Shown: positions 1 through 50,126, counted from the first letter of the stretch. The stretch is 64,000 nt of DNA from Candidatus Thorarchaeota archaeon (GCA_030669595.1 DAOVDG010000001.1:6047-70046), one strand, 5' to 3'. Notes: generated by a model not told the origin, from the sequence alone. Program-made: numbers and translations.

Positions 1-53
1 TCACGGATATACTTGACCATTGGGTGCTTCAGTATGGGTGGTGCTGTCGTCAT
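1..53 (-). CDS. 2-oxoacid:ferredoxin oxidoreductase beta subunit, N-terminal 17 codons only (gene runs off the window start)
   Basis: Reverse complement of 1..53 reads MTTAPPILKHPMVKYIR. Its ATG overlaps the alpha-subunit stop as ATGA, which is the usual alpha-beta arrangement. Confidence 0.35.
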   Translation of the reverse strand, partial: MTTAPPILKHPMVKYIR

Positions 54-17531: not shown

Positions 17532-20500
17532 GTGAACGCTGAAATGGCAGACGCATCATCAAAACCGGTTGTTATCATCGGCGCTGGGATAGCAGGGATG
17601 CGAGCCGCACTCGACCTTGCGGATATGGGAGTCAAGGTCTTTCTAGTCGAGAAGAATGCAAGCATTGGAGGACATATGGCTCAATTGGACAAGACATTTC
17701 CAACTCTGGACTGCTCCATCTGCATCCAAGGGCCTTGGATGGTTGACTGCTCCCGTCATCCGAACATTGAGATCTTAGTGCACTCTGAAGTCACCAATGT
17801 TTCAGGCACTCAAGGTAACTTCAAAGTCAAGGTATTGAAGCGCACTCGACGCGTTGACCCCGTGAAGTGCACTGGCTGCGGAGAATGTATGCGTGTCTGT
17901 CCTATCGAGATTCCGAATGAGTACGATTTGGGACTGATGATGCGCAAGGCGGCCTACATACCTTTCCCACAAGCAGTGCCCAATGTCGCAACAATCGATA
18001 TTGAGAACTGTATCCGATGCATGGTCTGTGTGAAGAGCTGTAGGGCAGAAGCAATCGATTTTGACATACCTGATGAAACAGTCGAAATTAGCGCGGGCTC
18101 AATCATAATTGCCACTGGCTTCAAGATGCTTGATGCCTCGACTGTTCCGGAGTATGGCTATGGAGCACTTCCCAATGTTGTAACAGCCCTAGAATATGAG
18201 AGGATGGTCTGCGCAAGTGGACCAACTGGGGGGGTAATCATGCGGCCCTCCGATGGACTCGAACCTCGCAGGATTGCATTTGTCCAATGTGTCGGTTCTC
18301 GCGATGTAAATCATTGCGCCTACTGCTCAAGGGTCTGTTGCACCTATGCCACTAAGGAAGCCATGATCACAATAGAGCATGATTCGAATGTCAAGATAGA
18401 CATTCTCTACAACGATATGAGGGTCTTTGGCAAAGGCTTCGAAGAGTTCATTGTGAGGGGAAAAACCGAGTACGGCATTAACTACGTGCGGGGACTCCCT
18501 AGCGACATAGGCGAAGATCCATCTACTCATGATCTGCTTCTTCGTCACACCGATGAAACGGGACACAAAGTGATTGAGGACAGATATGACCTTGTGGTGC
18601 TATGCCAAGCAATGGTCCCAAATGACAACACCGACTTGATGCAGATGCTTGGCATACATACAGACAAGTACGGTTTCATAGACGCTGACGGTGACACGAC
18701 AGAATGCATTGAAACTGGAGTTCCAGGTATCCATATGTGTGGGGCATGCAATAAGCCAAAGGACATCCCCGAGTCGGTCGCTGAAGGCAGCGCTGCCGCT
18801 GCACTGGCAACACTGGACATAGTCCTGCCCAAGTCCAGTGATACTGAGGCGATTACGGAGGTTGACCTCGAGCTAGCGGCGGGTGAGCCGAGGGTTGGGG
18901 TGTTCATCTGTTCCTGTGGTATTAACATAGCCGGCTATGTTGATGTGACTGAAGTAACCAAATACGCCGCAACTCTACCGAGTGTGGTTCACGCTGAAAA
19001 TCTGCTCTATGCATGCTCATCCGATGCTCAGGAAGTGATTAAAGACACTATCAGGGAACATCAGCTGAATCGTGTTGTCGTTGCATCGTGTACTCCAAGA
19101 ACACACGAGCCACTGTTCAGGGCGACGCTGGTAGAGGCTGGACTCAACAAATACCTTTTCGAGCTTGCCAACATTCGAGAACACTGCTCTTGGATACACA
19201 TGGGAATGAAGGATGAAGCCACCTCCAAGGCGATGGATCTGGTGAGGATGGCTGTTTCAAAGGTCATACTGTATCAAGCACAGGAAGAGGCAGTGGTCAG
19301 CGTAGAGCCGGCTGCTCTCGTAGTTGGCGCTGGAGTTGCTGGCATGGCGGCAGCAGAAATCATTGCTGGCAAGGGTTTCAAGGTATATCTTGTTGATAAG
19401 GAAGATAGTGTCGGAGGACTGTTGAACCAGCTGCCCACAGTCAACTTCGACCGTGTTTCCAGTCAGGGAATTATTGATGAATATGAAGAACGGTTGAATT
19501 CTAACCCTCAAATCGAGCTTCTTCTCAGCTCGAAGGTTGTGAATGTCAAGGGTGCGATAGGCGATTTTCAAGTGACCACGCGGAGCGGAAAAAAGAATAA
19601 GACCCTGAACGTCGGAGTGGTCATAGTGGCAACTGGCGCAGTCGAGCTTCAAGAGAAGGGACTCTATGGTCTGGGAAAGATGCCGGAAGTCATTACGCAA
19701 AGCCAGTTTGGTCAACGACTTGCGGCAGACAGTGGCATCACTGATGGAGACACCTTCATGGTGATACATTGTGCTGGGTCGCGGGAGGAAGAATCCCTTG
19801 AGGGCTCACGGACGTGGTGCTCTGGAATCTGCTGTGATGTTGCTCTCAATCACACGCTAGAACTCCTGGAAAGGTATCCTGCATCACACGTATTCCACCT
19901 CTACAGGGACTTGAGAGTGTCATACGATGGGGAGGACAGGTATCGTGAAGTCAGACAGAAAGGCGCTGTCTTCATCAAGTATGATAGGGACTCGCCGCCA
20001 GTGGTGAAGAAAGGGAAGAACAAGGTGATCAAAGTCACAGTTCCCGACATGGCTTTCGGGACAAATCTTGTTGTGGAGGTGGACCATGTGATACTTGCCA
20101 CGGCAATGATTCCGCCTGAGTCCAACAAGCAGATTTCTGAGTTGTTCAAGGTGCCAATGAATATGTCGGGCTTTCTGATGGAAGCACATCCCAAGCTCAG
20201 ACCAATCGACTTCGCGACTGATGGTGTGTACGTGGCCGGTTGTGCAACTGCACCCAAATCAATACAACAAGCCATCGCGCAGGGCCGAGGCGCGGCTGCA
20301 AGGGCGCTCATTCCACTTGTCAATGGAACACGAAGTGCTGAGGCGATAGTTGCCACAGTAGACCCAGAGGTCTGCGTGGGCTGTGGCACTTGCGAGGTGA
20401 ACTGTGTATACAGCGCAATCGAGGTCGTACCCGGTGACGGCAGCCATGACTACGCAGTCGCAAATCCGGTCCTCTGTCAAGGATGTGGAAAATGCGGGGC

Positions 20501-20999
20501 TTCATGTCCCGCAGGTGCTATCACGATGAAGCACTTCACAGACGATCAGATAATGGCACAAATTCGTAGTGCACTCGAAGACATGCCTACAGACCAGTCA
20601 CGGATTCTTGCAATTGTGTGTACTTGGTGTTCCTATGCTGGTGCCGACAGTGCTGGTGTTTCGAGGCTCCAACAGCCAACGACAGTACGTGATATTCGCA
20701 TTATGTGTACTGCCAGAGTAAGCGTGACACACATTCTTGAGGCTTTTAGACTCGGGGCCGATATGGTCTGGATTTCGGGCTGCCACTTCGGCGACTGTCA
20801 TTATGTTGACGGGAATCTTGCATTTGATAGAAGATTTCAGATTGCCAAGCGGATTATCGAGAAAGCAGGTTTCGAACCCGAGCGGCTTCAGTTCACACAA
20901 ATAAGCGCCAGTGAGGGGTCAATCTGGGCGGAGAAGGTTAAGGAGCTGACCAAGATCGCTGATAGACTGGGGCCAAGCCCGTTGAGACCAAGGAGATGA
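17532..20999 (+). CDS. hdrA: giant fusion protein: HdrA-like FAD/FeS module, then a canonical HdrA, then an MvhD domain
   Basis: Two GxGxxG FAD sites (VVIIGAGIAGM, ALVVGAGVAGM). An inserted ferredoxin (CTGCGECMRVCP...CIRCMVCVKSC). HdrA N-domain motif RVGVFICSCGINIAGYVD in mid-protein. C-terminal ferredoxin (CVGCGTCEVNC...CQGCGKCGASCP). Terminal MvhD-like segment (ILAIVCTWCSYAGAD...ISGCHFGDCHY). Confidence 0.9.
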   Translation: MNAEMADASSKPVVIIGAGIAGMRAALDLADMGVKVFLVEKNASIGGHMAQLDKTFPTLDCSICIQGPWMVDCSRHPNIEILVHSEVTNVSGTQGNFKVKVLKRTRRVDPVKCTGCGECMRVCPIEIPNEYDLGLMMRKAAYIPFPQAVPNVATIDIENCIRCMVCVKSCRAEAIDFDIPDETVEISAGSIIIATGFKMLDASTVPEYGYGALPNVVTALEYERMVCASGPTGGVIMRPSDGLEPRRIAFVQCVGSRDVNHCAYCSRVCCTYATKEAMITIEHDSNVKIDILYNDMRVFGKGFEEFIVRGKTEYGINYVRGLPSDIGEDPSTHDLLLRHTDETGHKVIEDRYDLVVLCQAMVPNDNTDLMQMLGIHTDKYGFIDADGDTTECIETGVPGIHMCGACNKPKDIPESVAEGSAAAALATLDIVLPKSSDTEAITEVDLELAAGEPRVGVFICSCGINIAGYVDVTEVTKYAATLPSVVHAENLLYACSSDAQEVIKDTIREHQLNRVVVASCTPRTHEPLFRATLVEAGLNKYLFELANIREHCSWIHMGMKDEATSKAMDLVRMAVSKVILYQAQEEAVVSVEPAALVVGAGVAGMAAAEIIAGKGFKVYLVDKEDSVGGLLNQLPTVNFDRVSSQGIIDEYEERLNSNPQIELLLSSKVVNVKGAIGDFQVTTRSGKKNKTLNVGVVIVATGAVELQEKGLYGLGKMPEVITQSQFGQRLAADSGITDGDTFMVIHCAGSREEESLEGSRTWCSGICCDVALNHTLELLERYPASHVFHLYRDLRVSYDGEDRYREVRQKGAVFIKYDRDSPPVVKKGKNKVIKVTVPDMAFGTNLVVEVDHVILATAMIPPESNKQISELFKVPMNMSGFLMEAHPKLRPIDFATDGVYVAGCATAPKSIQQAIAQGRGAAARALIPLVNGTRSAEAIVATVDPEVCVGCGTCEVNCVYSAIEVVPGDGSHDYAVANPVLCQGCGKCGASCPAGAITMKHFTDDQIMAQIRSALEDMPTDQSRILAIVCTWCSYAGADSAGVSRLQQPTTVRDIRIMCTARVSVTHILEAFRLGADMVWISGCHFGDCHYVDGNLAFDRRFQIAKRIIEKAGFEPERLQFTQISASEGSIWAEKVKELTKIADRLGPSPLRPRR

Positions 21000-21006
21000 T
21001 GGCTAA

Positions 21007-21543
21007 TTGACTAAAAGCTGGGGCACTTTCACATCCTTCAAGGGAACCACCATTGAGATTGCCGCTCCTGACTTCACAGAAGTGGTCAAGAAACTGACTG
21101 GGGGAAAGGACCTGACAGCATGCTTTCAGTGCACAAAGTGTACTGCTGGATGTCCAGTCACTGAAAAAGTATCCATCCAAGTACACGAAATCATGAGAAT
21201 GCTTCTCTTGGGCATGAAAGAAGTTCTTGAAACCGACATGATTTGGCGATGCACATCTTGCTACACATGCCAAGAGCGATGTCCTCAGGGCATTGATGTA
21301 ACAGACATCCTGATTGGTCTAAAGAACTTGGCATACGAAGATGGCATTGGTCCGGATGCTTACCGAGAGAATGCCAAGAGCGTCCTAGAATCAGGTTTCG
21401 CGTATCAAACCTCAGGATTCAGAAGGAAGAAGAGGGATGCAAAGGGTCTCCCGGCGCTGCCGGAGGCAAACATGGCGGAAGTGGAGAAGCTAGCAGAGCT
21501 AACAGGACTCAAGGCCTTGTTGGAAGAGGATGAAGCAAAATGA
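21007..21543 (+). CDS. hdrC: heterodisulfide reductase subunit C (paralog 3)
   Basis: CFQCTKCTAGCP and CTSCYTCQERCP motifs. Immediately downstream of the hdrA fusion. Confidence 0.9.
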   Translation: MTKSWGTFTSFKGTTIEIAAPDFTEVVKKLTGGKDLTACFQCTKCTAGCPVTEKVSIQVHEIMRMLLLGMKEVLETDMIWRCTSCYTCQERCPQGIDVTDILIGLKNLAYEDGIGPDAYRENAKSVLESGFAYQTSGFRRKKRDAKGLPALPEANMAEVEKLAELTGLKALLEEDEAK

Positions 21544-22442
21544 CCAAGAACAGGACCCGAGAGAAACGGTTCGCCTTCTTCCTAGGTTGCGTGACTCCGT
21601 TTCGCGAGGTGAGCTACGAAACAGCCTCAAGACGTGTTTGTGAGGAACTGGGAATTGAGTTGGTGGACATGGACGGAGTCAATTGCTGTGGCTTGCCAAT
21701 TGAGGCAATTAACCGAGACATGGCGCTGTCTATGGCGGCTAGAAATATAGTAATCGCAGAAGAGATGGGTCTTGATATTGTCACAATATGCTCTGGTTGT
21801 GCAGGTGCTCTCACGAAAACCAACGGTATCATGAAAGAGAACTCGGAGGTTCGGAATCAGATTAACAAGTACTTGAAGAAGATTGGCCGAGAGTTCAAGG
21901 GTACGATAGAAGTCAAGCATTTTGCCAGAGTACTGCTTGAGGACATTGGAATCGAAAAACTGAGGAAGCTCATCAAACACCCCTTAACAGCGCTCAGAAT
22001 TGCCGGTCACTACGGCTGCCATGTCCTGAAACCCGCTGCTCACATGAAGTTCGAGAATCCAGAAGACCCGACTTTCTTGCATGAGCTGATCGAATTGACT
22101 GGTGCTACTGATGCGCGATATGAGGGTGAAAAGGACTGCTGTGGAGGTATGGTCGTAGGTGTCGATACGGACATACCTCTGAGTCAAGTTCGAAAGAAGA
22201 TGAACCATGTCAAAGAAGCTGGAGCACAGGCGCTAGTGACAATCTGTCCCAGCTGCCACCTGATGCTTGACTCTAATCAGGAGCGGGCTGGCAAACCATT
22301 CGACGAAACCTACAACATGCCGGTCCTTCATTATCCGCAACTCCTAGGACTTGCCATGGGCATCCCCCCCGAGGAACTGGCCTTGGATGAATTGAAGGTG
22401 AAGGCTGACGAGGTCCTTTTGGCTATCAAGGGCTTATCCTGA
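21540..22442 (+). CDS. hdrB: heterodisulfide reductase subunit B (paralog 3)
   Basis: CCG domains (CCGLPIE...CSGCAG and CCGGMVVG...CPSCHLM). 4-nt overlap with hdrC. Confidence 0.9.
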   Translation: MTKNRTREKRFAFFLGCVTPFREVSYETASRRVCEELGIELVDMDGVNCCGLPIEAINRDMALSMAARNIVIAEEMGLDIVTICSGCAGALTKTNGIMKENSEVRNQINKYLKKIGREFKGTIEVKHFARVLLEDIGIEKLRKLIKHPLTALRIAGHYGCHVLKPAAHMKFENPEDPTFLHELIELTGATDARYEGEKDCCGGMVVGVDTDIPLSQVRKKMNHVKEAGAQALVTICPSCHLMLDSNQERAGKPFDETYNMPVLHYPQLLGLAMGIPPEELALDELKVKADEVLLAIKGLS

Positions 22443-22459: not shown

Positions 22460-23626
22460 TTAGATGAAGCGTTTCATTAGCTCCTCTACTATGTGGTCGA
22501 TGTTTTCAGCAGTGACACCAAGCGCATCATAGGCCTCTTGGGCACGAATAGCTCTCAATGGAGCATCCATGTCTTTCAGGGTTGAGAAGACTCCAATTCT
22601 TCGGCCTATCTGGTACAGACGCTGTTTCTCGGGTTTCATCGCAAGGAACGCCCGTAATGGGTCGAGCATCTTCTCTTTGTCTTTGGGGAGAGTTCCTTCC
22701 ACTTCTGAGAACAGATTCAGTATGTGGTCGCTCTTAACAACACTTGTGATTCCTTTCAGGTTCTCAATCAGCTTAAGGAGTTCACCCACTACCATCATAT
22801 CTGTGCATCTCTCAAAGCGCCCATCTATGCATTCCTTCCAGAGTGGTGCGACGATTGGGATTGCCAGCTGTCTGAGTCGTATGAAATCCGGATTGATCTG
22901 ATTCAGCGCATCTGCGGTTTCTAGTGCATGTTCTTCTGATAATCGTACTCCCCCGAGACCTGGCATAACGTATTCTGAGAGCTCCAATCCTGCTCTCTTG
23001 GCTTTCAGGCCTGCACTAACATGAATGGCCTTAGTCGCACCTTTCTTGACCAGCTTCAACACGTTGTCAGAACCGGACTCGAGACCTACATGGACTCTAT
23101 CTAAGCCTGATTTTCTTATCGCCTTCAATTCCTCCTCATCTATCCTTGCTAGTGTGCTTGAACGAGAATAGGATGTCACACGATTCACGAGAGGAAAGCG
23201 GCTTCTAATGTGCTTCAGAATCTCAATCAATTCCGAGGGCCGCACTGTCAGACTGTCTGCATCCTGCAGAAAAATGGAACTCATTCCAGCTCTGAACCAT
23301 CTAAAGGCGCTATCAAATGCCGTCCATTCCCCTGACTCAAGATTGTCAGTTGCGTTCCTGACTTGCGCTATTGGCAAGCCATCGTGCTCATCGGCAATCC
23401 CTTGGAGGATTCCCACACATCTGTAGACTAAGTCAATGTCCTTCTTCACGTGGTCTACTGAACGTTTCGAATACCGTGCCCCCTTGTATACCGGACAAAA
23501 GGTGCAGCGATTCCACGGGCAGTTCCTAGTAACACGCAGGAGGAGACTATGCGCCTCGTTCGGGGGCCGTATGGGCCCCTGTTCAAAACCGGAATAAGAA
23601 TGACCACGTGGTGGAGTTTCTGTCAT
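22460..23626 (-). CDS. radical SAM domain protein
   Basis: CPWNRCTFCP is a Cx4Cx2C variant of the radical SAM cluster motif. Convergent with the hdrACB operon. Confidence 0.65.
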   Translation of the reverse strand: MTETPPRGHSYSGFEQGPIRPPNEAHSLLLRVTRNCPWNRCTFCPVYKGARYSKRSVDHVKKDIDLVYRCVGILQGIADEHDGLPIAQVRNATDNLESGEWTAFDSAFRWFRAGMSSIFLQDADSLTVRPSELIEILKHIRSRFPLVNRVTSYSRSSTLARIDEEELKAIRKSGLDRVHVGLESGSDNVLKLVKKGATKAIHVSAGLKAKRAGLELSEYVMPGLGGVRLSEEHALETADALNQINPDFIRLRQLAIPIVAPLWKECIDGRFERCTDMMVVGELLKLIENLKGITSVVKSDHILNLFSEVEGTLPKDKEKMLDPLRAFLAMKPEKQRLYQIGRRIGVFSTLKDMDAPLRAIRAQEAYDALGVTAENIDHIVEELMKRFI

Positions 23627-23708: not shown

Positions 23709-25046
23709 TTACAAGTTCTTGATGATCTCTTCTCCAAATGCACTCGTGGAGATTGGCTCCACTGTCGGTTTCAGTTGCCGCGCGATATCGTACGTGACCT
23801 TCTTAGACTCAACCGCCCTAGAAACTGCGGTCTTGATCATCTCAGATGCCTCGTTCCATCCCATGTGTTCCAACAGAAGACATGCAGACAAGGTGATAGA
23901 ACCTGGGTTGATTCGGTTCTTTCCGGCATGCTTCGGAGCGGTTCCATGTGTCGCTTCGGCGAAGAAAATATCATCGCTGAGATTTGCACCGGGAGCAAAC
24001 CCAAGTCCACCAACTTGAGCAGCCAATTGGTCTGAGAGATAGTCACCATTGAGGTTAGGCAGCGCTGCGACTTCATACTCACGAGGTCTCAGAAGCACTT
24101 GTTGGAACATCGCATCCATTATGCGGTCATTCACAAGGATCTTTCCGTCAGCGTAGGCCTTCTCTCTGTCGCCACCGTACTTGTCGTTCAGTTCCTTTTC
24201 AGTAACGATTTGGTCTCTGAATTCATTGATGGCAACTTCATAACCCCAGTTTCTGAACTGGCCTTCGGTGGCTTTCATGATATTACCTTTGTGACAGAGA
24301 GTCACCACACGCCTCTTGTGGTCAATGGCATACTGAATTGCTTTTCTGACCAATCGCTTGGTGTTCTCGGGGGACATTGGTTTCACAGAGATGCCCGCAG
24401 AAGACCGCAAGCTATCGGAGTCCGCTGGCACATTCCATTCAGTTCTGAGGAAATGTATGAGCTTCTGTGTCCTCGCAGTTCCCGGATAGCCCTCTATGCC
24501 TGCGTATATGTCCTCTATGTTCTCTCTGAAAATCACCATATCTATTGCATCGGGATCTTTGACCGGGGCCGGGACACCTTTGATGTGCCACACAGGTCTA
24601 AGACAGACAAACAAGCCCAATGACTTGCGGATGCCGACGTTTATCGAGGAGAAGCCCTTACCTATGGGGGTTGTGCATGGCCCCTTGATCGCTAAATGGT
24701 AGTCCCGAACGACCTTCAGTGTGTCATCGGGCAAATAGGCCTTTCTCTGGTCATCAGGGCTGAGTGCCTTAAGCTCCTCATCCGTAACCTCAGGGGAATA
24801 AAGGTTTCTCGCCTTATCGCCGGCATAAATCTCGAACCATTCGAACTTCCGCTTCCTGTCGTATGCCTTCTCTACTGCGGCGTCCACGATCTTCATCATT
24901 ACCTTAGTAATCTCAGGGCCAATGCCATCTCCCTCAACCCAACAGACTATGGGATTGTCGGGAATATTCCATTGACCATCCTTGACTGTAACTTTCTCTC
25001 CCTTTGAGGGTGGAACTAGTTTCTCGTACTTTGTCATTACATTCAC
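23709..25046 (-). CDS. icd: NADP-dependent isocitrate dehydrogenase
   Basis: Collinear with bacterial-type IDH, for example EGDGIGPEIT, NLNGDYLSDQLAAQVGGLG and ATHGTAPK. Confidence 0.9.
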   Translation of the reverse strand: MNVMTKYEKLVPPSKGEKVTVKDGQWNIPDNPIVCWVEGDGIGPEITKVMMKIVDAAVEKAYDRKRKFEWFEIYAGDKARNLYSPEVTDEELKALSPDDQRKAYLPDDTLKVVRDYHLAIKGPCTTPIGKGFSSINVGIRKSLGLFVCLRPVWHIKGVPAPVKDPDAIDMVIFRENIEDIYAGIEGYPGTARTQKLIHFLRTEWNVPADSDSLRSSAGISVKPMSPENTKRLVRKAIQYAIDHKRRVVTLCHKGNIMKATEGQFRNWGYEVAINEFRDQIVTEKELNDKYGGDREKAYADGKILVNDRIMDAMFQQVLLRPREYEVAALPNLNGDYLSDQLAAQVGGLGFAPGANLSDDIFFAEATHGTAPKHAGKNRINPGSITLSACLLLEHMGWNEASEMIKTAVSRAVESKKVTYDIARQLKPTVEPISTSAFGEEIIKNL

Positions 25047-25052
25047 ACTCCT

Positions 25053-26891
25053 TCATTTCGAAGCGTATAGTATCTCATCCCACGGCTGTCGATACAGCGC
25101 GGCACGTTGGCGTTTCTGGTCGAATATGTGCCCCATCATCCCGATTGATCTCCCAAGCACAAAGAGCCCGTTCAAGACCTCTGTGTCCAAGACATCTTGT
25201 TTTTCTTCAAGTGTTAGGTCAAGATTCTCCATCAGGTCAAGGAAGCAGATTCCAATGCAACCGTCCACATTGAGAATCAAGTTATTCCTCTTTTGTGTGG
25301 TCAACTTCTCGACCTCAAGAGCATAGTCTAGGTATGGGTGCTTCGGGAAGTTCTCATTTACGAACTTTTTCAGCAGCGTAACGCGGATATCCGGATTCTG
25401 AACTGACTTGATTCTATGGCCAATTCCTGGGATGTTAATGCCTACAACGTCCTTCATGTAATTAATGAAGTCCGGTGGATGCTTTCCGGAATCCAAAGCC
25501 ATTTTGAAATACTTGGCAGCATCGGAGATAGCACCGCCGAATCTTGGGCCTATCGTCAATATACCACTTGCCAGTGACGCCATCAAATCCTTTCCAGCTC
25601 GCGCAGTCACAATGGCGTTGTGAGCGCCCGATACGGCTGGGCCGTGGTCCGCAGTCAACTTCAGCACTAGTTCGATGTACTTTGCGGCAAACGGAGGCAA
25701 CTCCTTCTTCAGCCAGAGCAGCCCAATCACGTACCCAAGAGAGAGCTCTTCACTGATTATCTTATCAATCGGAACTCCATTGTACGTGAGGATGTCACCC
25801 CTCTCGTTAGAAATGGTGACTACCACGTCTGTCGGTCTTCGAACAATCCCTTGAACTGCAGCTTTTCCATAGTCCTGAGGAATCTGTGGGGGCTCAAAGT
25901 CCTCTAAGGGCTCTATCTTCCCTTCGGCCTTCAATTTCTCAAAGGTTTCACGTATCTTGTCACCGAAAGTGTCGTATGATTCAGGGACAATAATTCCGAC
26001 TTCAGCAAGCGCTTTATTCTTTGCGTCCGCTGTTTCCATATCACTCCCGGCCATTGCACCGGCGTGACCGAATTGAACGCCTGCTGGGAATATCTTGGAA
26101 GAAGTACCTGTCACCCACATCACGAGGGGTTTCTTGACACGACCATCTTTCACGGCCTCGACAATCGAGTACTCGTCCATGCCTCCAATCTCACCCAAAC
26201 AAACAATCATCTTCACCTGTGGATTAGCCTCGTATCGAAGGATGTGGTCGATGAGCAAAGATCCAGCGTACCGGTCTCCGCCAATTGCAATGCCCTCTAG
26301 TATTCCGTCTGTGTTTTGGGATATCATGAAGTTCATTTCATTGCTCATACCGCCGGACTTGGAAACGAAACCAACGCTGCCTGGTCGATAGAGCTTTGAT
26401 TTGATGATGTTCTCTATTGTGCCTGCTGTATTGGCAATCTTGAAGGCGCCTGCTCGAATTCCACCGACAGTAGCGGGTCCGATGATTATCTTATTCTTCT
26501 CTTTTGCGAGCTTGATGAGCTCTCGGCTTTGTCGCTCTGGCATTCCTTCAGCAATAATGACCAAGACCCGAATGCTCTCAGTTTCCAAAGCCTCTTTCGA
26601 TGTTGGATGGGATGATCGGAACGACGAGAAGTTGATTAGGACATCTGCTGTAGTATGATTCTTTGCGGCAAGCTCCAGCGTCTTGTAGATAGGAATAACA
26701 ATCTCCTTGCCACCCCAGAAAACCTTGTGGTATCCGATTGCCCCTGCTTGAGTGGGCCGGATTATCGCAGCAACACTAGGCTTGTCCCTCTTGCTGACAA
26801 AATCAAAGTCCAACATTCGCTGGATTGCGTTCCGCTGGAATCCGTAAACAATCGCTTGGGAATCTCTATTGAATAGTTCATAGTCTTCCAT
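25053..26891 (-). CDS. aclA: ATP-citrate lyase alpha subunit
   Basis: Succinyl-CoA synthetase alpha-like region with the phospho-His loop FGHAGA. The C-terminal citrate synthase-like domain has GHRIKS. The 612 aa length is typical of AclA. Confidence 0.85.
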   Translation of the reverse strand: MEDYELFNRDSQAIVYGFQRNAIQRMLDFDFVSKRDKPSVAAIIRPTQAGAIGYHKVFWGGKEIVIPIYKTLELAAKNHTTADVLINFSSFRSSHPTSKEALETESIRVLVIIAEGMPERQSRELIKLAKEKNKIIIGPATVGGIRAGAFKIANTAGTIENIIKSKLYRPGSVGFVSKSGGMSNEMNFMISQNTDGILEGIAIGGDRYAGSLLIDHILRYEANPQVKMIVCLGEIGGMDEYSIVEAVKDGRVKKPLVMWVTGTSSKIFPAGVQFGHAGAMAGSDMETADAKNKALAEVGIIVPESYDTFGDKIRETFEKLKAEGKIEPLEDFEPPQIPQDYGKAAVQGIVRRPTDVVVTISNERGDILTYNGVPIDKIISEELSLGYVIGLLWLKKELPPFAAKYIELVLKLTADHGPAVSGAHNAIVTARAGKDLMASLASGILTIGPRFGGAISDAAKYFKMALDSGKHPPDFINYMKDVVGINIPGIGHRIKSVQNPDIRVTLLKKFVNENFPKHPYLDYALEVEKLTTQKRNNLILNVDGCIGICFLDLMENLDLTLEEKQDVLDTEVLNGLFVLGRSIGMMGHIFDQKRQRAALYRQPWDEILYASK

Positions 26892-26898
26892 TCTCGCA

Positions 26899-28176
26899 TC
26901 ACTCCTTCAGGGCCAAAGGTACGATTCGGGTCATTGGAGTGTATCTGTCGTACACTTCGATGGGAATGCCCATTTCTTCTCCGACATCCTTCATGAGCTT
27001 CAGGCCCTCCTTCTCATTGGGCCCTCCACGACGTACATAGATCTTCACGTTCACTTTCTTTAGCTTGTCAGCTGATTTTCTCAGAGCACTCACAATCCCT
27101 GCGAAAGTGGCTTTCACATCTGTGAAGTTTGCGATTCCGCCACCGACTAGGAGGATTTTCGGGCGCCCCTTTGGATCCGGCTTCTTTGTCATGAGATCAA
27201 TAAGTGTCTGGGCGTACAACTCAGTGTGCTCGCGACTAGGGTTCCCACTATACTCTCCGTAGTTCGCCAGTTCATTGCCAAATCCCAAGTCCACGATGGT
27301 GTCTGCGTAGACAACGCTTGCACCGCCTCCGGCGACCATAGTCCAAATTCGTTTGTCGCGATCGAGAACCGTTAACTTCAGCGAGGAACCTGTTTGTTCG
27401 TCGATGCTTCTGATGTATTCTTCCTCTTTGGAGAACTTCTGACCGAACGAAACTGGAAACTTAATCGGGTTATCGTAGTTGCCCCACGTGTCGGAATGCT
27501 TGAACGCCGCTGTATCATCAAGACGAGCTTTGAGGTCCAGAGGAACCACCAATTTGTCTTCAGTGACAGCGAAAGGATTGATTTCCATGAATGCGAAGTC
27601 CTGGTCAATGTAGACCTGCAGTAACCCCTTGACAAAGGAAACAACAACATCTTCCAGCTCCCCAAGGTCTGGCAGCTTCTCGGCCAGATTGAATGCGTCG
27701 ATGTCAGTCCCGATTGGTATCGGAATGTGCAACACCTTATCCCAGTTCTCCTCCACGAAAATACCTCCTTCCAACGAGAAATGGATTATGTCATTTTCGC
27801 GGTCTGACGTGATGGAAACATAGAACTCCTTGTCATGAGGAATGAAGGGTTCGACTAGGAATCTATTCAGAGTCCCTTTCGTTTCACCGACGATCATCTC
27901 CTTGTCCATCTTCTCTTTAATGAATGACTTCAGGTCGGCTAAGCTTGCATCGAGTAGTAGTAGATTCGCCTTGCCTCTCTTGCCGAATAGCTGGTCTGGT
28001 TTTGCGGCCAGCTTGTCAGTTTTCAGCCACGGATTGTCTTTCACAAGTTCCTCCCATTTGGTGTCGGGAGTTATTACAGCTAGTTTCCCGTGGTAATTGA
28101 ACTCAGGGAAGTACTTAGGCAACTCTCCAGCAATCAATTTCTTTGCCGAATACTCGTGGATTGATTTTTGCGCCAT
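26899..28176 (-). CDS. aclB: ATP-citrate lyase beta subunit (ATP-grasp)
   Basis: N-terminal ATP-grasp resembling succinyl-CoA synthetase beta. 425 aa, immediately upstream of aclA. Confidence 0.85.
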   Translation of the reverse strand: MAQKSIHEYSAKKLIAGELPKYFPEFNYHGKLAVITPDTKWEELVKDNPWLKTDKLAAKPDQLFGKRGKANLLLLDASLADLKSFIKEKMDKEMIVGETKGTLNRFLVEPFIPHDKEFYVSITSDRENDIIHFSLEGGIFVEENWDKVLHIPIPIGTDIDAFNLAEKLPDLGELEDVVVSFVKGLLQVYIDQDFAFMEINPFAVTEDKLVVPLDLKARLDDTAAFKHSDTWGNYDNPIKFPVSFGQKFSKEEEYIRSIDEQTGSSLKLTVLDRDKRIWTMVAGGGASVVYADTIVDLGFGNELANYGEYSGNPSREHTELYAQTLIDLMTKKPDPKGRPKILLVGGGIANFTDVKATFAGIVSALRKSADKLKKVNVKIYVRRGGPNEKEGLKLMKDVGEEMGIPIEVYDRYTPMTRIVPLALKE

Positions 28177-28213
28177 TTTTTTCTCTCCAATGTGGAAACA
28201 ACTTATGACCGGT

Positions 28214-30247
28214 CTAGACTCCTCCCTCTTTCGTGTAATTCAGAAGACCTCCGGCCAACATAATCTTCCTCTCACGCTCAGAGAGCTCGTAAGTGACGGG
28301 GATATCGATATTCTTGGTCGTGTTCCGAATTACTAGCGTGTTCTCCCCTTTTTCCAGTGCTGTGCGAATACCCGCTATCTCCAGTAAATCTCCAGCATCA
28401 ATCTTGTCGAAACCATCGGAGTCTGCAAACTCAACCGGAAGGATTCCAACGTTGACCAAATTTGCTTTGTGAATGCGGGCAAATGACTTCACCGCGACCA
28501 CCCTGATTCCAAGATACATTGGTGCGAGCGCAGCATGTTCGCGACTTGACCCTTGACCATAGTTCTCGCCAGCAATGATAATTCCCCCACCAGTTTCCTT
28601 GGACTCGAGTGCTCTCGTTGCAAATGTCGTATCCACCTGTGAAAAGGCAAACTCGCTTATCTTGGGTAGATTCGATCTCAGTGGCAGAATCTTGGCTCCT
28701 GCTGGCATGATGTGGTCAGTTGTTATGTCGTCTTCGACTTTGATTAGGGCATTCAACTTAGGCAGCTTTTCAGGAAGGGGTATAGCTTCCGGAAGCGGTT
28801 GAATGTTCGGGCCACGTATAATCTCGATGTCTTCGGGGTGATCGGAAGGTTCGAGAATCATCGAATCATCAATGTTAATGGAGGTTGGCATCTCAATCTT
28901 GGGATAAGCACCCAGCTTCCTTGGGTCTGTTATCTTCCCGTAGATTGCCGCCGCCACAGCAACCTCTGGACTAACAAGATAAGCTTCTGAATCCATCGTG
29001 CCGCTGCGGCCCCGAAAGTTGCGATTGAACGTTCTGATTGAAACACTTCCTGATGGCGGTGCAAACCCCATGCCAATGCATGGACCACAACCGCTCTCTA
29101 GGATTCTGCCTCCGCTTGAAATAATATCCGCCAGCATTCCTTTCTCCGCCAAGTACTGCAACACCTGCCTAGATCCCGGCGATATTCCTAGGGTCGTTCT
29201 AGAATGGACTGTCTTGCCCTTGAGAAGGGCTGCAACCATTGCCATGTCTTTGATTGACGAGTTGGTACACGAACCAATAGCCACTTGGTCCACTGGTTTG
29301 CCTTCAAGCTCTGAAAGCGGTACAACATTCCCTGGGGAATGGGGCTTGGCTATCATCGGCTCCAGCTTGCTAAGGTCAACCTCAATCACCTCATCGAAGT
29401 CTTCTTCCTGCCCTACTGGAATACTGACCCACTCGTCTTCTCGTTGCTGAAGTTTGAAGAACTCCTTCGTGATTTCATCTGACGGAAAAATGGAGGTTGT
29501 CGCACCAGTTTCAGTACCCATGTTGGTAATGGTAGCTCGCTCAGTAACGGATAGCGACTTCAGTCCGGGGCCAAAGTACTCCAAGATATAGCCCCTTCCT
29601 CCTTTCACACCGATTCTTCTTAACACCTCAAGTATGATGTCCTTTGCTGACACGAAGTTGCGGAGTTTGCCAATTAGTTTTATTCCCATAATCTTGGGAA
29701 CTGTTATGTAGAACAACCCGCCCCCCATCGCAACGGCTACGTCAAGTCCACCCGCACCTATGGAAATCATTCCCACTCCTCCTGAAGTCGGAGTATGGGA
29801 GTCGGACCCGATGAGAGTTGCTCCTGGCTTGGAGAACCGCTCAAGGAATACTTGGTGGCAAATACCATTTCCCGGTCGTGAGAAGAGTATTCCGTACTTA
29901 GCTGCAACTGACTGCAAGTACAAGTGATCATCAGGGTTCTTGAAATCAGTTTGAAGCATATTGTGGTCGACAACTGAAACGGAGAGTTCCGTCTTCACCT
30001 TGTCGAGGCCCATCGCCTCGAATTGCAGATAAGCCATTGTACCTGTCGCGTCTTGGGTCAAGGTACGATCTATCTTAATTCCAATCCTATTGCCTGGAAC
30101 GAGCTTAGAATCGCCCACTGCAACGTGTTTTGCAAGAATGCTTTTAGCAACGGACACCATTTTGAGATTCACCTTCTGTTTTGCGACACATTGTTCCCCA
30201 TATTCGAACAAGAACGCCCATAAAATAGTGTCGCTTTGTACATCCAA
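28214..30247 (-). CDS. acn: aconitate hydratase (aconitase)
   Basis: The Fe-S ligand motifs GSCTNSS and SGCGPCIGM and the signature [11 protein letters not shown] are present. The true start may be the internal Met at MVSVAKS. Confidence 0.85.
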
Positions 30248-30276: not shown

Positions 30277-30849
30277 CTAACCAAGCTCACCACGACCATA
30301 GAAGAGTTCCCCAAGCCTCTTCATTGCATCACGGACACATTCCTTCTTGCCGCTCACTTGCAGGTGTCTATCACCATCGAGTGTTATCAATACGCTACAG
30401 TCCTCCGCAAGCTCTGAAACTATCTCCACTGGAATCTCGTCGGGTAACCGGATTCGGAAGAAGCTCACGTCCTTTTCTCTGGGCAAATCAGAGATGGGCG
30501 TCGGTGGGTCCTCAGACGCTACCTCTCCCCGTCCGTGAATGGCATCACCGAATCTTGTTTCCCAGGCTTGTCTATATTGAACACCATCCTTCTCTTCTGC
30601 CCAGACCATCAGGGTTTCTCGAAGTGCCTGGACCTTTATCTCAATTTCCTGCTGAAGATCGGCATCGCACTGCTCAGGCTGCTTGATCTCACTGCCGAAT
30701 GACCTCAAATACTCGATGACCATCTTGCTATTTCTTAGATCTGCATAGACGAGGTCTGGAATGAAGACTCCCTTCGACCGCAGCTCTCCAAGCAGATTGT
30801 TCAAGACCATCCATCCTGCGTGTAGGTCGTCAACTGACACCAATGACAA
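30277..30849 (-). CDS. hypothetical protein translationally coupled to the giant hdrA paralog
   Basis: 190 aa, acidic, no Cys motifs. Its start abuts the stop of the upstream giant hdrA gene (30850). Confidence 0.5.
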
Positions 30850-33800
30850 CTACTCCCTCAGCATCTCCTCTATCTGGTCGTAGAAGCTCTTCTCACGCCA
30901 CCATCGGAGGTCACGTGCCCCCGTTGGGCAGATGGAACAGCATGCTCCACATCCCTCACACGCAAGCTCGTTGGTGACGCTCTTTTTCACGCCCGGCGCT
31001 ACTTCAACCATTGAAACAGCGTCGTAGGGACAAATCTCCGAATAATGGCAGAGGTCACATCCAACACAGAGATCTTCGTCCACATCTGCTGCTAAAAGTT
31101 CGATATTCACAGTACCGAGATTGAGCGGAGCACAGGCTGCGCTGGCTGCACCGCGTGCTTGGTTGATTGAGTCTGATACATTCTTTGCGTAGGTTGCACC
31201 CAAGAAGATGCCTGGGACAGTGGTTTCTACTGGTTTGAACTTCATATGAACCTCAAGCAGGAATCCATCTTGTCCTCGGTTAATTCCCAATGCCTTGGTG
31301 AGTTCGTTGATGTCGTGGGGCGCTTCCAAGCCCAGTGCGAGCACAACCATGTTGGATCGTATCTTGAAGGTTTCCTGGGAAAGAGTATCATATACTGTTA
31401 CAATGGCCTCATCAGCATCAGGAGATTTCTCAACAGTGACCGGTTTCTCTCTTATCCAACGCAGATAGATGACGCCCTTCTGACGGTTCTCCCTCCACAT
31501 CTCCTCCATATTGTTGGCGAATGGGCGGATGTGTTCCTTATAGGCGGAGAACACTCTGATGTCCGGGAACATCTCCTTCAGTTCGTGCTGCATAGCTATG
31601 ACAGCGGAACAACACACCCTTGAACAGTATCTATTTCCCTCTCCTGGGCTCTGTCTTGAACCGACGCAGTGGATAAATACTGGATTTTTTGGTGGCTTCT
31701 TGAGTTCTCCATTTCTTAGCATGCGCTCAAGCTGGAGTGTTGTAATGACTCCTGGGATTTCCTCCCAACCATACTCTCCCTTCTTTGGATCATAAGTGTC
31801 CGTGCCCGTTGTGATGACCATTGAGCCTATCGTATGAACTTCCTGCTCTCCGGTTTTCATGTTCTGAATCGTTATCTCATAGTTCCCGTAGGTGCTTTCT
31901 CTTTCCAATGGTTTCGAGTTGAGCAATACTTTGATTCGCTTCTCCTTCTCAACACGTGCTACAAGGTCGTCCACGATTTCCTGAGCGCTCTCCATCTTGG
32001 GGAACAATTTGTAGAGGTCATTTAACCTTCCGCCGAGTCGGTCCTCTTTCTCAACAAGGACGACATCAAAGCCCTTCCGAGCAATGTCAAGCGCAGCGGT
32101 CATCCCTGAAACCCCTCCGCCAACAACCATTGCGACTCGAGTCACATCGACTGACTTGACAGGCACAATCTCGTTGTTGATGGCCTTGGCGACGCCGGAG
32201 CGAATCATATCCTGTGCTTTCTCCTGACGAACATCGGGAGGATCTTTCGCGTTGACCAGCGCAATGAGTTCTCTAAGTCCTATAGGCCCCACTAGATAGT
32301 AACCTGATATGCCAGCAGCCTCTAGGGCGCGTCTGAAAGTGTCTTCGTGTTGCAGCGGTGAGCATGAACCAACGACCACACGGTTCAGCTTGTGCTCCTT
32401 GATGGCCTCTGTGATGAACTCCTGGCCTGGGTCGCTGCACATGAAAATGTAATCTGTGCTGTAGACCACATTCGGAATATGGCTTGCCCACTGAGCTAGG
32501 CCAGGACAATCTATTACATTGCCAATGATTCCTCCACAATGGCAAATGAACACGCCAACTCTCGGCTCTTCTCCGACCTCCAGTGGCGGAACTGCTTCAG
32601 GTACGGGGGGGTGTGGGAGCGGTAATATTGACTGCGCAGCCATAGCCGCACCTTTACCCTCATTGACCGTGTCTGTGCCGTCCTTGGGTCCGTGGATGCA
32701 ACCAGCCATGTATATGCCATCGCGGGTGGTTTCGAGAGCAGCTGAGTTTGGGTTCCTTTCCTTCACCCAACCCGTCTCATCAAGCTCGATGCCCAAGACC
32801 TTTGCAAGTTCTTCGCTACCCTCTGCAGGTCTGAAGCTTGAGTTGAGAACGACCATGTTCACTTTAATCTCTTGAATCTCGCCAGTTTCGGTATCTTCCA
32901 GCTTCACCATGAGGTCGCGAGTGTCAGGGTCTTCATTGATCTCCGCAACCCTACCTCGGATGAAGTCAATGTCCATGTTGTGCTGGGAGTCCCAGAGGAA
33001 CTCCTCCAGCATTTTCCCGCAAGTGCGCATGTCCATGTAGGTGTAGATGATTTTGCAGTGCTCTTTGGGATAGTGCATGCGCGTGACCTGGGCCAGCTTC
33101 AGTCCAAAAGAACAGCAGACCCTGTTGCAGTGATGACTATACCCCTGAATGTTCTCCCGAACGTCTCTTGACCCAACGCAGTTCACGAACATGATGGCCT
33201 CAGGTTCCCTGCCGTCAGATGGACGAACCATATGTGCATCAGTCGGTCCTGTTGGATGTGTTTGACGATCGTACTCTAGGGATGTCACGACATTTGGAAA
33301 CACACCGTAGCCGTATTCCGCATAGTCGGTCGGCTGATATTCCTGAAAGCCTGTGGCGTTTATGATGGAACCCACGTGCAGGTCGTATTCCTTGTCTTTA
33401 TCGTCGTACATGATGCAGTCTTGCGGACACACTGCAGCACATGTCCCACAGCCAATGCAGGAATCCCTGTCTATGCAGGCCAGCAGAGGGATTTGCTGCG
33501 GGAAGTTCATGTATATCGCCTTGCGCAGTGATAGTCCCATGTCGTACTCATTCGGGACCTCCACCGGACAGACCGCGATGCAAAGGCCGCAGCCAGTGCA
33601 CTTGTTCTCGTCTACGTAACGGGCTTTCTTATGAATCGTCAGCGTGAAGTCGCCCGCCTTGCCCTTGACTTTCTTCACCTCTGAGAGCGAGTGTATCGTT
33701 ATATTCAGGTGCTTGCCCACGAATGAGGTGAGTGGAGTCATAACACAGGCGGAGCACTCTAGAGCGGGAAATATTTTATATATTGCAACATAAATTCCCC

Positions 33801-33951
33801 CAATTGACACAGTTCTCTCTATGAGATGTGCATGATGACCGCCGTCAGCGAGGGCGAGTGCGGCGCTAATCCCTGCCATTCCCGCACCGATTATAGCAAC
33901 GTCAGTGGGCTTGGGCTTTGCCACTGACTTCTTTGTTGCCTTGCTGACCAT
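30850..33951 (-). CDS. hdrA: giant fusion protein: HdrA-like FAD/FeS module, then a canonical HdrA with C-terminal 2x[4Fe-4S] ferredoxin domain (no MvhD)
   Basis: VAIIGAGMAGISAALALA and AMVVGGGVSGMTAALDIA FAD sites. Inserted ferredoxin (CTGCGLCIAVCP...CIGCGTCAAVCP). HdrA N-domain motif RVGVFICHCGGIIGNVID in mid-protein. C-terminal CVGCDLCHYSEICP...CEGCGACCSICP. Confidence 0.9.
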   Translation of the reverse strand: MVSKATKKSVAKPKPTDVAIIGAGMAGISAALALADGGHHAHLIERTVSIGGIYVAIYKIFPALECSACVMTPLTSFVGKHLNITIHSLSEVKKVKGKAGDFTLTIHKKARYVDENKCTGCGLCIAVCPVEVPNEYDMGLSLRKAIYMNFPQQIPLLACIDRDSCIGCGTCAAVCPQDCIMYDDKDKEYDLHVGSIINATGFQEYQPTDYAEYGYGVFPNVVTSLEYDRQTHPTGPTDAHMVRPSDGREPEAIMFVNCVGSRDVRENIQGYSHHCNRVCCSFGLKLAQVTRMHYPKEHCKIIYTYMDMRTCGKMLEEFLWDSQHNMDIDFIRGRVAEINEDPDTRDLMVKLEDTETGEIQEIKVNMVVLNSSFRPAEGSEELAKVLGIELDETGWVKERNPNSAALETTRDGIYMAGCIHGPKDGTDTVNEGKGAAMAAQSILPLPHPPVPEAVPPLEVGEEPRVGVFICHCGGIIGNVIDCPGLAQWASHIPNVVYSTDYIFMCSDPGQEFITEAIKEHKLNRVVVGSCSPLQHEDTFRRALEAAGISGYYLVGPIGLRELIALVNAKDPPDVRQEKAQDMIRSGVAKAINNEIVPVKSVDVTRVAMVVGGGVSGMTAALDIARKGFDVVLVEKEDRLGGRLNDLYKLFPKMESAQEIVDDLVARVEKEKRIKVLLNSKPLERESTYGNYEITIQNMKTGEQEVHTIGSMVITTGTDTYDPKKGEYGWEEIPGVITTLQLERMLRNGELKKPPKNPVFIHCVGSRQSPGEGNRYCSRVCCSAVIAMQHELKEMFPDIRVFSAYKEHIRPFANNMEEMWRENRQKGVIYLRWIREKPVTVEKSPDADEAIVTVYDTLSQETFKIRSNMVVLALGLEAPHDINELTKALGINRGQDGFLLEVHMKFKPVETTVPGIFLGATYAKNVSDSINQARGAASAACAPLNLGTVNIELLAADVDEDLCVGCDLCHYSEICPYDAVSMVEVAPGVKKSVTNELACEGCGACCSICPTGARDLRWWREKSFYDQIEEMLRE

Positions 33952-37262: not shown

Positions 37263-38303
37263 GTGTCTGGACAGATGCGCTACGTAAAGCTCCCAAAGGA
37301 AAAGGTCTACGAGTTCCTCGAGCAATTGAAGTCCATGGGGACTCTCTATGGGCCTAAGAAAATCTCAGAGAAGTTCTACGACTTCAGAGAGATTGGCGAT
37401 GTCAAAGAGGTGGAATTCGAGTACAACCGGACGATAACTCCCCCAAGAAAATTCTTCTTCCCCGAACGAGAAACCGTCTTTACGTTTGACACGGTCAATG
37501 TTGAGATTCATGAAACGCTGCCTACAGGAGACCCCATCATCATCTTCGGCGTGCATGCCTGCGACATTGTGGGTCTGCGTATCATGGACTCGCGTTTCAT
37601 TGACGATCAACCAGACCCCTACTATCAGACTCGAAGAGAGAATGGAATAATCATTGGACTCTCCTGCCTTCCTGACGAGTATTGCTTCTGCAGCGTGCGC
37701 CGCACTGATTTCGTTGATGCGGGCTTCGACCTCTTCCTTCATCTCCTCCCTGACGGCTATTTGGTTCGTGTGGGAACAGTGACCGGACACAAGCTAATCG
37801 AGAACTCGCCGGAATACTTCGAGGAGATTTCAAGCGAAGACAAGGATAACTTCGCCAAATTCGAGGCCAAACGGAGGTCCATGTTCACGGTTCAAGGCAA
37901 CTGGGATGATATGAGATATCGTCTTGAACTGCACCTCGACCATCCCATGTACATGCGCGAGAGCGACAAGTGCCTTGGCTGTGGCAATTGCACACTTACG
38001 TGCCCGACATGCCGTTGTTATGAAGTCAAAGACCTGCCAACTCTTGATGGGGCTGGGGGCGAGCGTGTTAGGTTTTGGGATTCCTGCCAATTCAGATCGC
38101 ACGGGCTTGTGGCGGGCGGTCACAACTTTAGACCCACAAAGAAGGACCGTTTCCTCAATCGCTACCAGTGCAAGAATGCCTATTGCGAAACCACCACAAC
38201 CGCGTACTGCGTGGGTTGCGGTAGATGTACGTACTTCTGCCCAGCAGACATCCAGTTCAAGGAGAACCTGCTAGAAGTCTACGGATTTGGAGGTGGAGCT
38301 TGA
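37263..38303 (+). CDS. hydB: cytoplasmic NiFe hydrogenase (group 3b, sulfhydrogenase-type) beta subunit, FeS protein (AsrA-like)
   Basis: Cys clusters [16 protein letters not shown] and [12 protein letters not shown]. It is the first gene of a beta-gamma-delta-alpha operon. Confidence 0.8.
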
Positions 38304-50124: not shown

Positions 50125-50126
50125 AT

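Follow-up and report, generated by a model that had tools for sequence, protein, structure and literature searches.

An aconitase, ATP-citrate lyase and isocitrate dehydrogenase operon in Thorarchaeota: probably a stand-alone citrate branch rather than part of a reductive tricarboxylic acid cycle

When the genes for ATP-citrate lyase (ACL) are found in an archaeon side by side with those for aconitase and isocitrate dehydrogenase (IDH), a metabolic question is unavoidable: do they belong to a reductive tricarboxylic acid (rTCA) cycle that fixes CO2, or to something more modest? The locus that raises the question here lies in a 64-kb stretch of DNA from Candidatus Thorarchaeota (hereafter, the window), in which the interval 23709-30247 holds four successive minus-strand open reading frames (ORFs) in the order acn-aclB-aclA-icd:

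28214..30160, minus strand: acn, aconitate hydratase of the compact, mitochondrial-aconitase-like type (648 aa from the likely ATG at 30160)
26899..28176, minus strand: aclB, ACL beta subunit with an ATP-grasp and a citrate-binding domain (425 aa)
25053..26891, minus strand: aclA, ACL alpha subunit with a CoA-binding/phospho-His part and a C-terminal citryl-CoA lyase (CCL) domain (612 aa)
23709..25037, minus strand: icd, homodimeric prokaryotic-type NADP-isocitrate dehydrogenase (442 aa from the likely ATG at 25037)

Since the genes are separated by gaps of 37, 7 and 6 nt (the 7-nt gap being that between aclB and aclA directly downstream of it) and each is preceded by an AGGAG-like ribosome-binding site, they form a genuine operon, acn-aclB-aclA-icd, and its host is a Thorarchaeota (Asgard) archaeon. 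The original prediction had named the same four enzymes on one strand, and its coordinates proved exact, with strong family matches for all four genes; judging from the sequences, the gene and enzyme identities are almost certainly right. Specifically, the aconitase ORF as listed (28214..30247) opens with a TTG at 30247 and encodes 677 aa; the start is most likely the ATG at 30160, because an AAGGTGA lies upstream of it, the first 31 residues of the longer ORF lie outside the profile match, and the orthologues are 648 aa long. The product matches Pfam Aconitase (E=1e-110), PRK07229 (932 bits, cut-off 612) and TIGR01342 (913 bits), and its nearest solved structure is mitochondrial aconitase (334 bits). 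The icd ORF, listed as 23709..25046 with a GTG at 25046 (445 aa), most likely starts at the ATG at 25037; its product passes the cut-offs of TIGR00183 (570.5 bits, cut-off 567.3) and NF005425 (535 bits, cut-off 490) and scores 453 bits against Bacillus subtilis IDH (1HQS) and 444 bits against Escherichia coli IDH. Compared with these two structures, the Thorarchaeota IDH has an insertion of ~18 residues at about positions 82-100 (SPEVTDEELKALSPDDQRKAY).

The window comes from an Asgard archaeon, as can be judged from the nearest AclA proteins and loci, which belong to Thorarchaeota metagenome-assembled genomes (MAGs) at 97-98% identity (e.g. DXJO01000026.1), and from a string of proteasome alpha, SBDS, Rrp4, Rrp41 and Rrp42 genes at 46809-50960 on the plus strand, which confirms an archaeal chromosomal context. 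A look-up of the exact AclA sequence in public assemblies returned no record, and a tRNA scan of the window found none. AclA identity is ~81% in other Thorarchaeota, 70-76% in Loki-, Heimdall-, Hod-, Hermod- and Odinarchaeota, and 60-64% in Thermoplasmata, Bathyarchaeia, Micrarchaeota, Altiarchaeota and some bacterial bins. A recent horizontal acquisition of the cluster was considered and appears unlikely: nothing marks it as a foreign island, the GC content (~0.49) is even over the cluster and its flanks, and the nearest AclA relatives are other Asgard lineages in descending identity.

Could the presumed lyase nevertheless be miscalled, aclAB encoding in reality a succinyl-CoA synthetase (SCS) or a citryl-CoA synthetase (CCS)/CCL system? 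The suspicion is nourished by NCBIfam, which has no dedicated ACL model and whose best matches for the two subunits are SCS alpha and beta; these scores, however, are far below the respective cut-offs (139 against 336 bits and 96 against 376), and the ACL-specific Pfam domains score high. In AclB, the PF24948 ATP-grasp domain (residues 2-231) is found at 230 bits (cut-off 83) and the PF16114 citrate-binding domain (residues 247-424) at 262 bits (cut-off 26.8), whereas AclA joins a Ligase_CoA domain to a Citrate_synt domain (PF00285, 77 bits, residues 396-601). Among solved structures, AclA scores 783 bits against the Methanosaeta concilii enzyme (6hxi_B), 731 against human ACLY and 402 against the Chlorobium limicola alpha subunit, as compared to 98 for SCS alpha, 82 for the CCS small subunit and 53 for CCL; for AclB, the corresponding values are 468 (6hxi_A), 354 (N-terminal part of human ACLY) and 203 (Chlorobium), as compared to 66 for the CCS large subunit and 51 for SCS beta. 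The PDB scores to ACL are thus 4-9 times those to SCS or CCS.

The catalytic residues tell the same story. The phospho-histidine of AclA, H276 in the motif QFGHAGA, aligns with human H760 (6POE native numbering), H416, H492 and D543 with human H900, H975 and D1026, and R581 and R601 with human R1065 and R1085; this catalytic set is invariant across an alignment of 14 Asgard AclA sequences. We take H416, H492 and D543 to be catalytic from what is known of ACLY and citrate synthase, and the role of D543 is supported by the two M. concilii sequences, which differ at the equivalent site, with Asp in 6HXI and Ala in 6ZNW. The CCL domain, the loss of which from AclA was named in the original prediction as fatal to its reading, is therefore present, fused to the alpha subunit and with its catalytic residues kept, and the pair groups with ACL and not, as had been feared, with succinyl-CoA synthetase (783, 731 and 402 bits for AclA against ACLs, 82-98 bits against CCS and SCS alpha). 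Domains, bit scores and aligned residues effectively refute a misannotated SCS or CCS/CCL, the chance of which we put at practically nil; AclAB is predicted from its sequence to be a catalytically complete heteromeric ACL, archaeal/eukaryote-like in type.

The closest characterised counterpart is M. concilii ACLY-A/B (6HXI, 6ZNW), which is likewise encoded by two genes with the same subunit lengths (~420 and ~610-630 aa), matches both Thorarchaeota subunits end to end, and shares the GHAGA loop and the catalytic Asp of the CCL domain. The differences are that the host here is an Asgard archaeon and not a methanogen, that there is a 3-residue insertion near residue 50, and that the Asgard enzyme is known from genes alone. 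The M. concilii heteromeric structures reportedly stem from the study of Verschueren et al. 2019, Nature 568:571. Human ACLY (6POE) is identical to AclA at 54% of 603 aligned positions (human residues 491-1094) and retains the catalytic residues checked, but the Thorarchaeota enzyme consists of two separate polypeptides, and the eukaryotic linker is missing from it. AclAB of Chlorobium limicola (6HXJ), although it has the same two-subunit architecture and catalyzes the same reaction, is far more distant, and its host has a demonstrated rTCA cycle. Finally, CCS and CCL of Hydrogenobacter/Aquificae (6HXQ, 6HXP) carry out the same overall chemistry with homologous domains in two separate enzymes, whereas the Thorarchaeota alpha subunit itself includes the lyase domain; the resemblance is limited to the low scores given above.

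Is such an enzyme a rarity in archaea, as the original prediction had it? A search for AclA across one genome per species gave at least 599 pattern matches, at least 575 of which were confirmed as AclA relatives, so that AclA-type genes occur in at least 575 species-level genomes; the best 80 are mostly Asgard-labelled and include the cultured Promethearchaeum syntrophicum MK-D1 (L005 in our numbering of loci). Related proteins in public records are already named 'ATP citrate synthase', and an archaeal structure has been solved (6HXI/6ZNW). ACL has been described in two Lokiarchaeota genomes (PMC6646929), in most Asgard phyla (10.1101/2022.10.25.513756), and in various Asgardarchaeota, with a discussion of its relation to eukaryotic ACLA/B and ACLY (PMC11976288); the literature search returned no specific statement on the TCA cycle, the citrate synthase or an acn-aclBA-icd operon of Thorarchaeota. 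The presumed rarity is not borne out: Asgard ACL and operons of this kind are already known and common.

Two further observations concern the shape and the labels of the relatives. Single-chain, ACLY-like proteins of ~1004-1040 aa, 50-53% identical to the window AclA, are encoded on metagenome and genome contigs of up to 102 kb (P0019-P0026, P0034, P0045, P0048, P0052, P0066, P0094); fused ACLY has been reported in some archaea (PMC11976288). In addition, three ACL loci with 62-73% identity to Thorarchaeota AclA (L045, on DATKTW010000007.1, L055 and L059) bear the labels of bacterial bins (Nanopelagicaceae, Anaerolineae). In the case of L045, at 73% identity and with an Asgard-like ~398-aa IDH gene downstream, mis-binning seems likelier than transfer.

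What travels with the enzyme was examined in the best 80 of the at least 575 AclA relatives, with flanks of up to 10 kb (85 loci in all with L081-L085, which are discussed below). The aclB and aclA genes are adjacent in 79 of these 80 loci. Where the downstream sequence sufficed (64 loci), an IDH-family gene directly follows aclA in 41, lies elsewhere within 10 kb in 13, and is missing in 10; of 64 loci, 21 have acn immediately 5' of aclB and 10 more have it at another place. Among the 51 loci with both flanks present, 21 have both acn and idh, 22 idh only, 4 acn only, and 4 neither. The slot after aclA is occupied by three unrelated types of IDH: the dimeric NADP type of the window (4 loci), a monomeric type of 748 aa (3 loci, including MK-D1, where acn-aclB-aclA is followed by a monomeric IDH at L005:11872-14118, PF03971, 1239 bits), and a divergent protein of ~398 aa (34 loci, e.g. 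L010:11917-13116, L022:11988-13181, L054:5114-6310, and 31 more). The latter falls under every NCBIfam cut-off (at best 250-266 bits, as compared to IDH-model cut-offs of ~509) and seems to be a putative IDH-like subfamily dedicated to the ACL operon. A ~398-aa beta-decarboxylating dehydrogenase is encoded directly 3' of aclA in most Asgard and Thermoplasmata ACL loci.

The grouping of ACL with IDH, often together with aconitase, is found in Asgard archaea, Thermoplasmata, Bathyarchaeia, DPANN and some bacteria; ACL-IDH(-aconitase) is a recurrent module of many anaerobic archaea and some bacteria. Because non-orthologous IDHs replace each other in a fixed slot, ACL and IDH, with aconitase, can be considered one functional module.

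What does this module do? The three enzymes span only the interconversion of acetyl-CoA plus oxaloacetate with 2-oxoglutarate. The trio as such is direction-neutral, and the operon alone is no proof of CO2 fixation through the rTCA cycle. The original prediction had seen in it the genes needed on the reductive side of an ACL-type rTCA cycle; this is not supported, as the trio serves equally well as an oxidative branch to 2-oxoglutarate, has been read so in anaerobic methanotrophic archaea (ANME; PMC9012536), and is carried by non-autotrophs.

The carriers are instructive. The nearest ACL to have been characterised comes from Methanosaeta concilii, which depends obligately on acetate. MK-D1 carries the same acn-aclBA-idh cluster; it grows solely syntrophically on amino acids and peptides and uses neither H2 nor formate nor citrate (PMC11316595). 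The module also occurs in Micrarchaeota (DPANN) bins (L062, L067, L080) and is thus not confined to autotrophs. Given these carriers, the module is no marker of autotrophy; those that can be placed physiologically are no rTCA autotrophs. It is for this reason that we favour, as the explanation overall, a self-contained reversible citrate branch that mainly supplies 2-oxoglutarate, a reading to which we would give an even chance of being correct in full. That the three steps stand alone, rather than forming part of a full rTCA cycle, is probable; that the oxidative, 2-oxoglutarate-forming direction is the main one is put forward more tentatively.

In such a branch, ACL would interconvert acetyl-CoA and oxaloacetate (with ADP and Pi) with citrate (with ATP and CoA), aconitase would interconvert citrate and isocitrate, and NADP-IDH would interconvert isocitrate with 2-oxoglutarate and CO2 (with NADPH). 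The main role would be to make 2-oxoglutarate, and hence glutamate, from acetyl-CoA and oxaloacetate; ACL would then run in the ATP-forming, citrate-synthase direction, and an excess of 2-oxoglutarate or glutamate may reverse the branch. ACL works close to equilibrium, and the formation of citrate through ACL, with a gain of ATP, is reported for Desulfobacter postgatei (Moller et al. 1987). No citrate-synthase-like ORF besides AclA was detected, with the AclA CCL domain as query, in the window and the 85 loci (1.41 Mb), a search that does not cover the rest of the genome. The Methanosarcinales make 2-oxoglutarate via the oxidative branch, and the Wood-Ljungdahl pathway, already a source of acetyl-CoA, has been reported in Thorarchaeota MAGs (10.1101/553131). 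The closest precedent is offered by ANME-1 and ANME-2c, where ACL, aconitase and IDH were read as a partial oxidative TCA cycle (Chadwick et al. 2022, PMC9012536): there, too, the three enzymes are viewed as leading to 2-oxoglutarate on their own, ACL working in the ATP-forming direction, in anaerobic archaea with the Wood-Ljungdahl pathway. These organisms, however, belong to another phylum, the likeness is one of enzyme sets, and the ANME reading is itself a genomic inference.

Several considerations weigh against the oxidative direction. The direction of flow cannot be read from a sequence, and the same three enzymes run reductively both in the Chlorobium-type rTCA cycle and in eukaryotic reductive carboxylation. 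Neighbouring genes whose products could supply reductant, namely, an NADPH-linked group-3b hydrogenase, HdrA-like proteins and a protein resembling 2-oxoglutarate oxidoreductase, fit reductive flow. In addition, a fermenter of peptides or histidine could run the branch from glutamate to acetyl-CoA, and the window does contain a urocanase gene.

This last point leads to a catabolic or redistributive use of the branch without a full cycle, in which glutamate from the breakdown of peptides or histidine would yield 2-oxoglutarate, NADP-IDH would carboxylate it reductively, and the citrate obtained by isomerization would be cleaved by ACL. The products would be acetyl-CoA, for acetate and ATP or for lipids, and oxaloacetate, for gluconeogenesis or aspartate, much as with the cytosolic ACLY of eukaryotes; indeed, outside the archaea the Thorarchaeota enzyme is closest to eukaryotic ACLY (731 bits, 54% identity), whose role is to cleave citrate. 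MK-D1, with the same cluster, lives on amino acids, the urocanase (61368-63026, plus strand) belongs to the route from histidine to glutamate, and the adjacent NADPH-producing group-3b hydrogenase could serve as the source of NADPH. On the other hand, cleavage would cost an energy-limited anaerobe one ATP per citrate, the operon has no linked glutamate dehydrogenase or transaminase, and the sequence does not discriminate this direction from the oxidative one. We consider glutamate-fed cleavage unlikely as the main role, albeit by no means negligible.

The remaining metabolic possibility is the one implied by the original prediction, a complete autotrophic ACL-type rTCA cycle of which the operon would be the citrate-cleaving end, driven by ferredoxin and NADPH from the Hdr and hydrogenase genes. 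It has to be judged together with two further gene sets of the window:

50..1612, minus strand: 2-oxoacid:acceptor oxidoreductase of the 2-oxoglutarate-oxidoreductase-like clade, delta-like subunit (1187..1612) and alpha subunit (50..1186)
37263..41322, plus strand: NADPH-linked NiFe hydrogenase of the group-3b sulfhydrogenase type, HydB/G/D/A (Pfam NiFeSe_Hases, Oxidored_q6)

ACL is the classical marker of the cycle, the operon holds NADP-IDH and aconitase as well, the oxidoreductase alpha/delta pair is a conserved neighbour in the Thor-type loci L004, L050, L084 and L085, and the hydrogenase lies 3.3 kb upstream. Yet, when the window ORFs of at least 150 aa were compared with Pfam, none of them was recognised as a fumarate reductase, fumarase, malate dehydrogenase, succinyl-CoA synthetase or carboxylase; the window has no pyruvate:ferredoxin oxidoreductase either. 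The oxidoreductase, moreover, is represented by its delta and alpha subunits only. The alpha subunit scores 544 bits with NF006412 (cut-off 411) and 411 bits with the 2-oxoglutarate synthase alpha model, under its cut-off of 579, and the delta-like subunit reaches 49 bits with OGOR_delta/OorD, also under the cut-off; no beta or gamma subunit was seen at the window start. Since in L084 (18083-19570) and L085 (18268-19755) the delta-like and alpha genes are followed by an epimerase gene and not by one for a beta subunit, the genes for the beta and gamma subunits, if there are any, must lie in another part of the genome. Of the 2-oxoacid:ferredoxin oxidoreductase that the original prediction had placed at the window start, then, the delta-like and alpha genes stand, and the others were not seen. 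We also considered this enzyme as a general neighbour of ACL and rejected the idea, as it accompanies ACL only in Thor-type loci and in one Thermoplasmatales locus.

A full cycle is further disfavoured by the occurrence of the module in MK-D1 and the Micrarchaeota bins, none of which are rTCA autotrophs, by the origin of the nearest characterised ACL in M. concilii, by the Wood-Ljungdahl pathway reported for Thorarchaeota, and by the mostly incomplete TCA gene sets of Asgard archaea noted in reviews (PMC6646929). We regard it as quite improbable. Taken together, the three readings rank, in our judgment, with the 2-oxoglutarate-supplying branch first, though held tentatively, glutamate-fed citrate cleavage second, and the full rTCA cycle as the least likely.

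Does the neighbourhood of Hdr genes alter this ranking? The original prediction had taken a stand-alone HdrA-like module just upstream of the operon as a sign of a reductive, ferredoxin-driven route. The genes concerned are:

30277..30849, minus strand: DUF2096 protein, 190 aa (PF23100 and PF09869), context gene, probably outside the operon
30850..33951, minus strand: HdrA2-like protein, 1033 aa, context gene, with two HdrA-type flavoprotein cores and ferredoxin domains but without an MvhD domain
17532..22442, plus strand: HdrA-HdrA-MvhD fusion (1155 aa), HdrC and HdrB (Pfam FlpD, Pyr_redox_2, Fer4, CCG), convergent on the ACL operon

The HdrA-like gene is indeed just upstream and on the same strand. 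Its product scores 881 bits with NF040770, under the cut-off of 1100, and 600 bits, in 3 stretches, with solved HdrA. The DUF2096 protein gave no match among solved structures and has 227 homologues; those with a named source among the 120 listed all come from Thorarchaeota or Promethearchaeota MAGs. The two genes are separated by 0-13 nt, whereas DUF2096 and acn are 116-226 nt apart (116 nt in the window, ~225 nt in L084 and L085). This spacer contains a TATA-like ATTTTAT, located ~60 nt ahead of the first codon of acn. Given this wide spacer and the TATA-like box, the simplest reading is that the HdrA2-like/DUF2096 pair and the ACL operon are two transcription units.

It might still be that the pair is functionally coupled to the operon, for example as a flavin-based NADPH/ferredoxin module that feeds or drains IDH, which would be compatible with any of the other readings. 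The order HdrA2-like, DUF2096, acn, aclB, aclA, icd is kept on one strand in the loci of the window clade (L001-L003) and in L084 and L085 (~81% AclA identity), in all of which acn-aclBA-icd is located between the two Hdr units, and L050 has HdrA2-like, DUF2096, aclB and aclA. Conversely, in the other Thorarchaeota loci L081-L083 the pair is followed by a convergent HdrB-HdrC-HdrA/MvhD set with no ACL genes in the locus; in L004, HdrBCA is divergent from acn-aclBA-icd and the pair is lacking; and in ~70 non-Thor ACL loci the pair is absent within 10 kb. Separate transcription, suggested by the spacer, and the presence of Hdr-type genes at four separate places of the window, which makes adjacency unsurprising, also count against coupling, and we consider it highly doubtful. 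HdrA2-like/DUF2096 is a tight, Thorarchaeota-specific pair; as it also occurs without ACL, its linkage to ACL, which is lineage-specific, is weak evidence. The adjacency reported in the original prediction is real, but it lends little weight to a reductive route.

Several features of the Hdr genes may be recorded here. The HdrA-like/DUF2096 pair is usually convergent on HdrB-HdrC-HdrA/MvhD; the HdrA/MvhD-HdrC-HdrB trio directly follows DUF2096 in L081 and L083. The host is not a methanogen, and three separate HdrC/HdrB-like pairs (Fer4 and CCG) are present in the window, at 3249-4654 (minus strand), 5949-7481 (plus) and 21007-22442 (plus), and radical-SAM genes adjoin two of them (4761..5837 and 22460..23626). 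An ORF of ~364-397 aa without a Pfam match (34061..35215 in the window) lies just upstream of the pair in the window, L001, L002 and L081-L083, with sequence similarity only in L001, L002 and, weakly, L082; it is absent from L084 and L085. The hydrogenase is closest, among NCBIfam models, to Pyrococcus-type sulfhydrogenase I HydB/G/A (538, 460 and 477 bits, all under the equivalog cut-offs) and is divergent from the HdrA2-like gene in L082, L084 and L085; its ORFs 38304..39164 and 39044..40009 overlap by ~120 nt, the small-subunit start probably lying later than listed. With three HdrC/HdrB pairs, an HdrA-MvhD fusion, a tandem HdrA-like gene and a NiFe hydrogenase, the window is as rich in Hdr and hydrogenase genes as had been claimed. 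Farther away, a 964-aa protein (8082-10976, minus strand) with six SBBP beta-propeller repeats, a bacterial TSP3 repeat and DUF7948 is probably secreted or surface-bound, and is followed by two ORFs without Pfam matches (11304..12146 and 12236..14110).

A more far-reaching scenario can be envisaged for some Thorarchaeota, although we think it a long shot: the operon might have been recruited into a co-regulated redox island (the group-3b hydrogenase, HdrA-like and DUF2096 proteins, HdrBC pairs and the 2-oxoacid oxidoreductase), where NADPH and ferredoxin derived from H2 would drive the sequence from succinyl-CoA via 2-oxoglutarate, isocitrate and citrate to acetyl-CoA and oxaloacetate. If true, this would be an H2-driven partial reverse TCA route, with a eukaryote-like ACL, in an archaeon closely related to the host lineage of eukaryotes.

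As it stands, the operon is an ordinary, already known feature, and its analysis adds modestly to the picture: the non-orthologous replacement of IDH in a fixed slot, the lineage-specific linkage to HdrA, and the placement within a Thorarchaeota redox island. Two consequences extend beyond this locus. In metagenome surveys (e.g. 10.1101/553131), carbon fixation by the rTCA cycle is often recognised by ACL alone; for Asgard archaea such use of the gene is unsafe, because ACL, although catalytically intact, travels as part of a three-enzyme citrate/2-oxoglutarate module that is also found in non-autotrophs. Furthermore, Asgard ACL is of the same type as eukaryotic ACLY and thus bears on the origin of the cytosolic acetyl-CoA supply of eukaryotes, a question that others have already posed and examined phylogenetically (PMC11976288); in the published trees, the eukaryotic ACL is not sister to the Asgard enzyme (PMC11976288; 10.1101/2022.10.25.513756).

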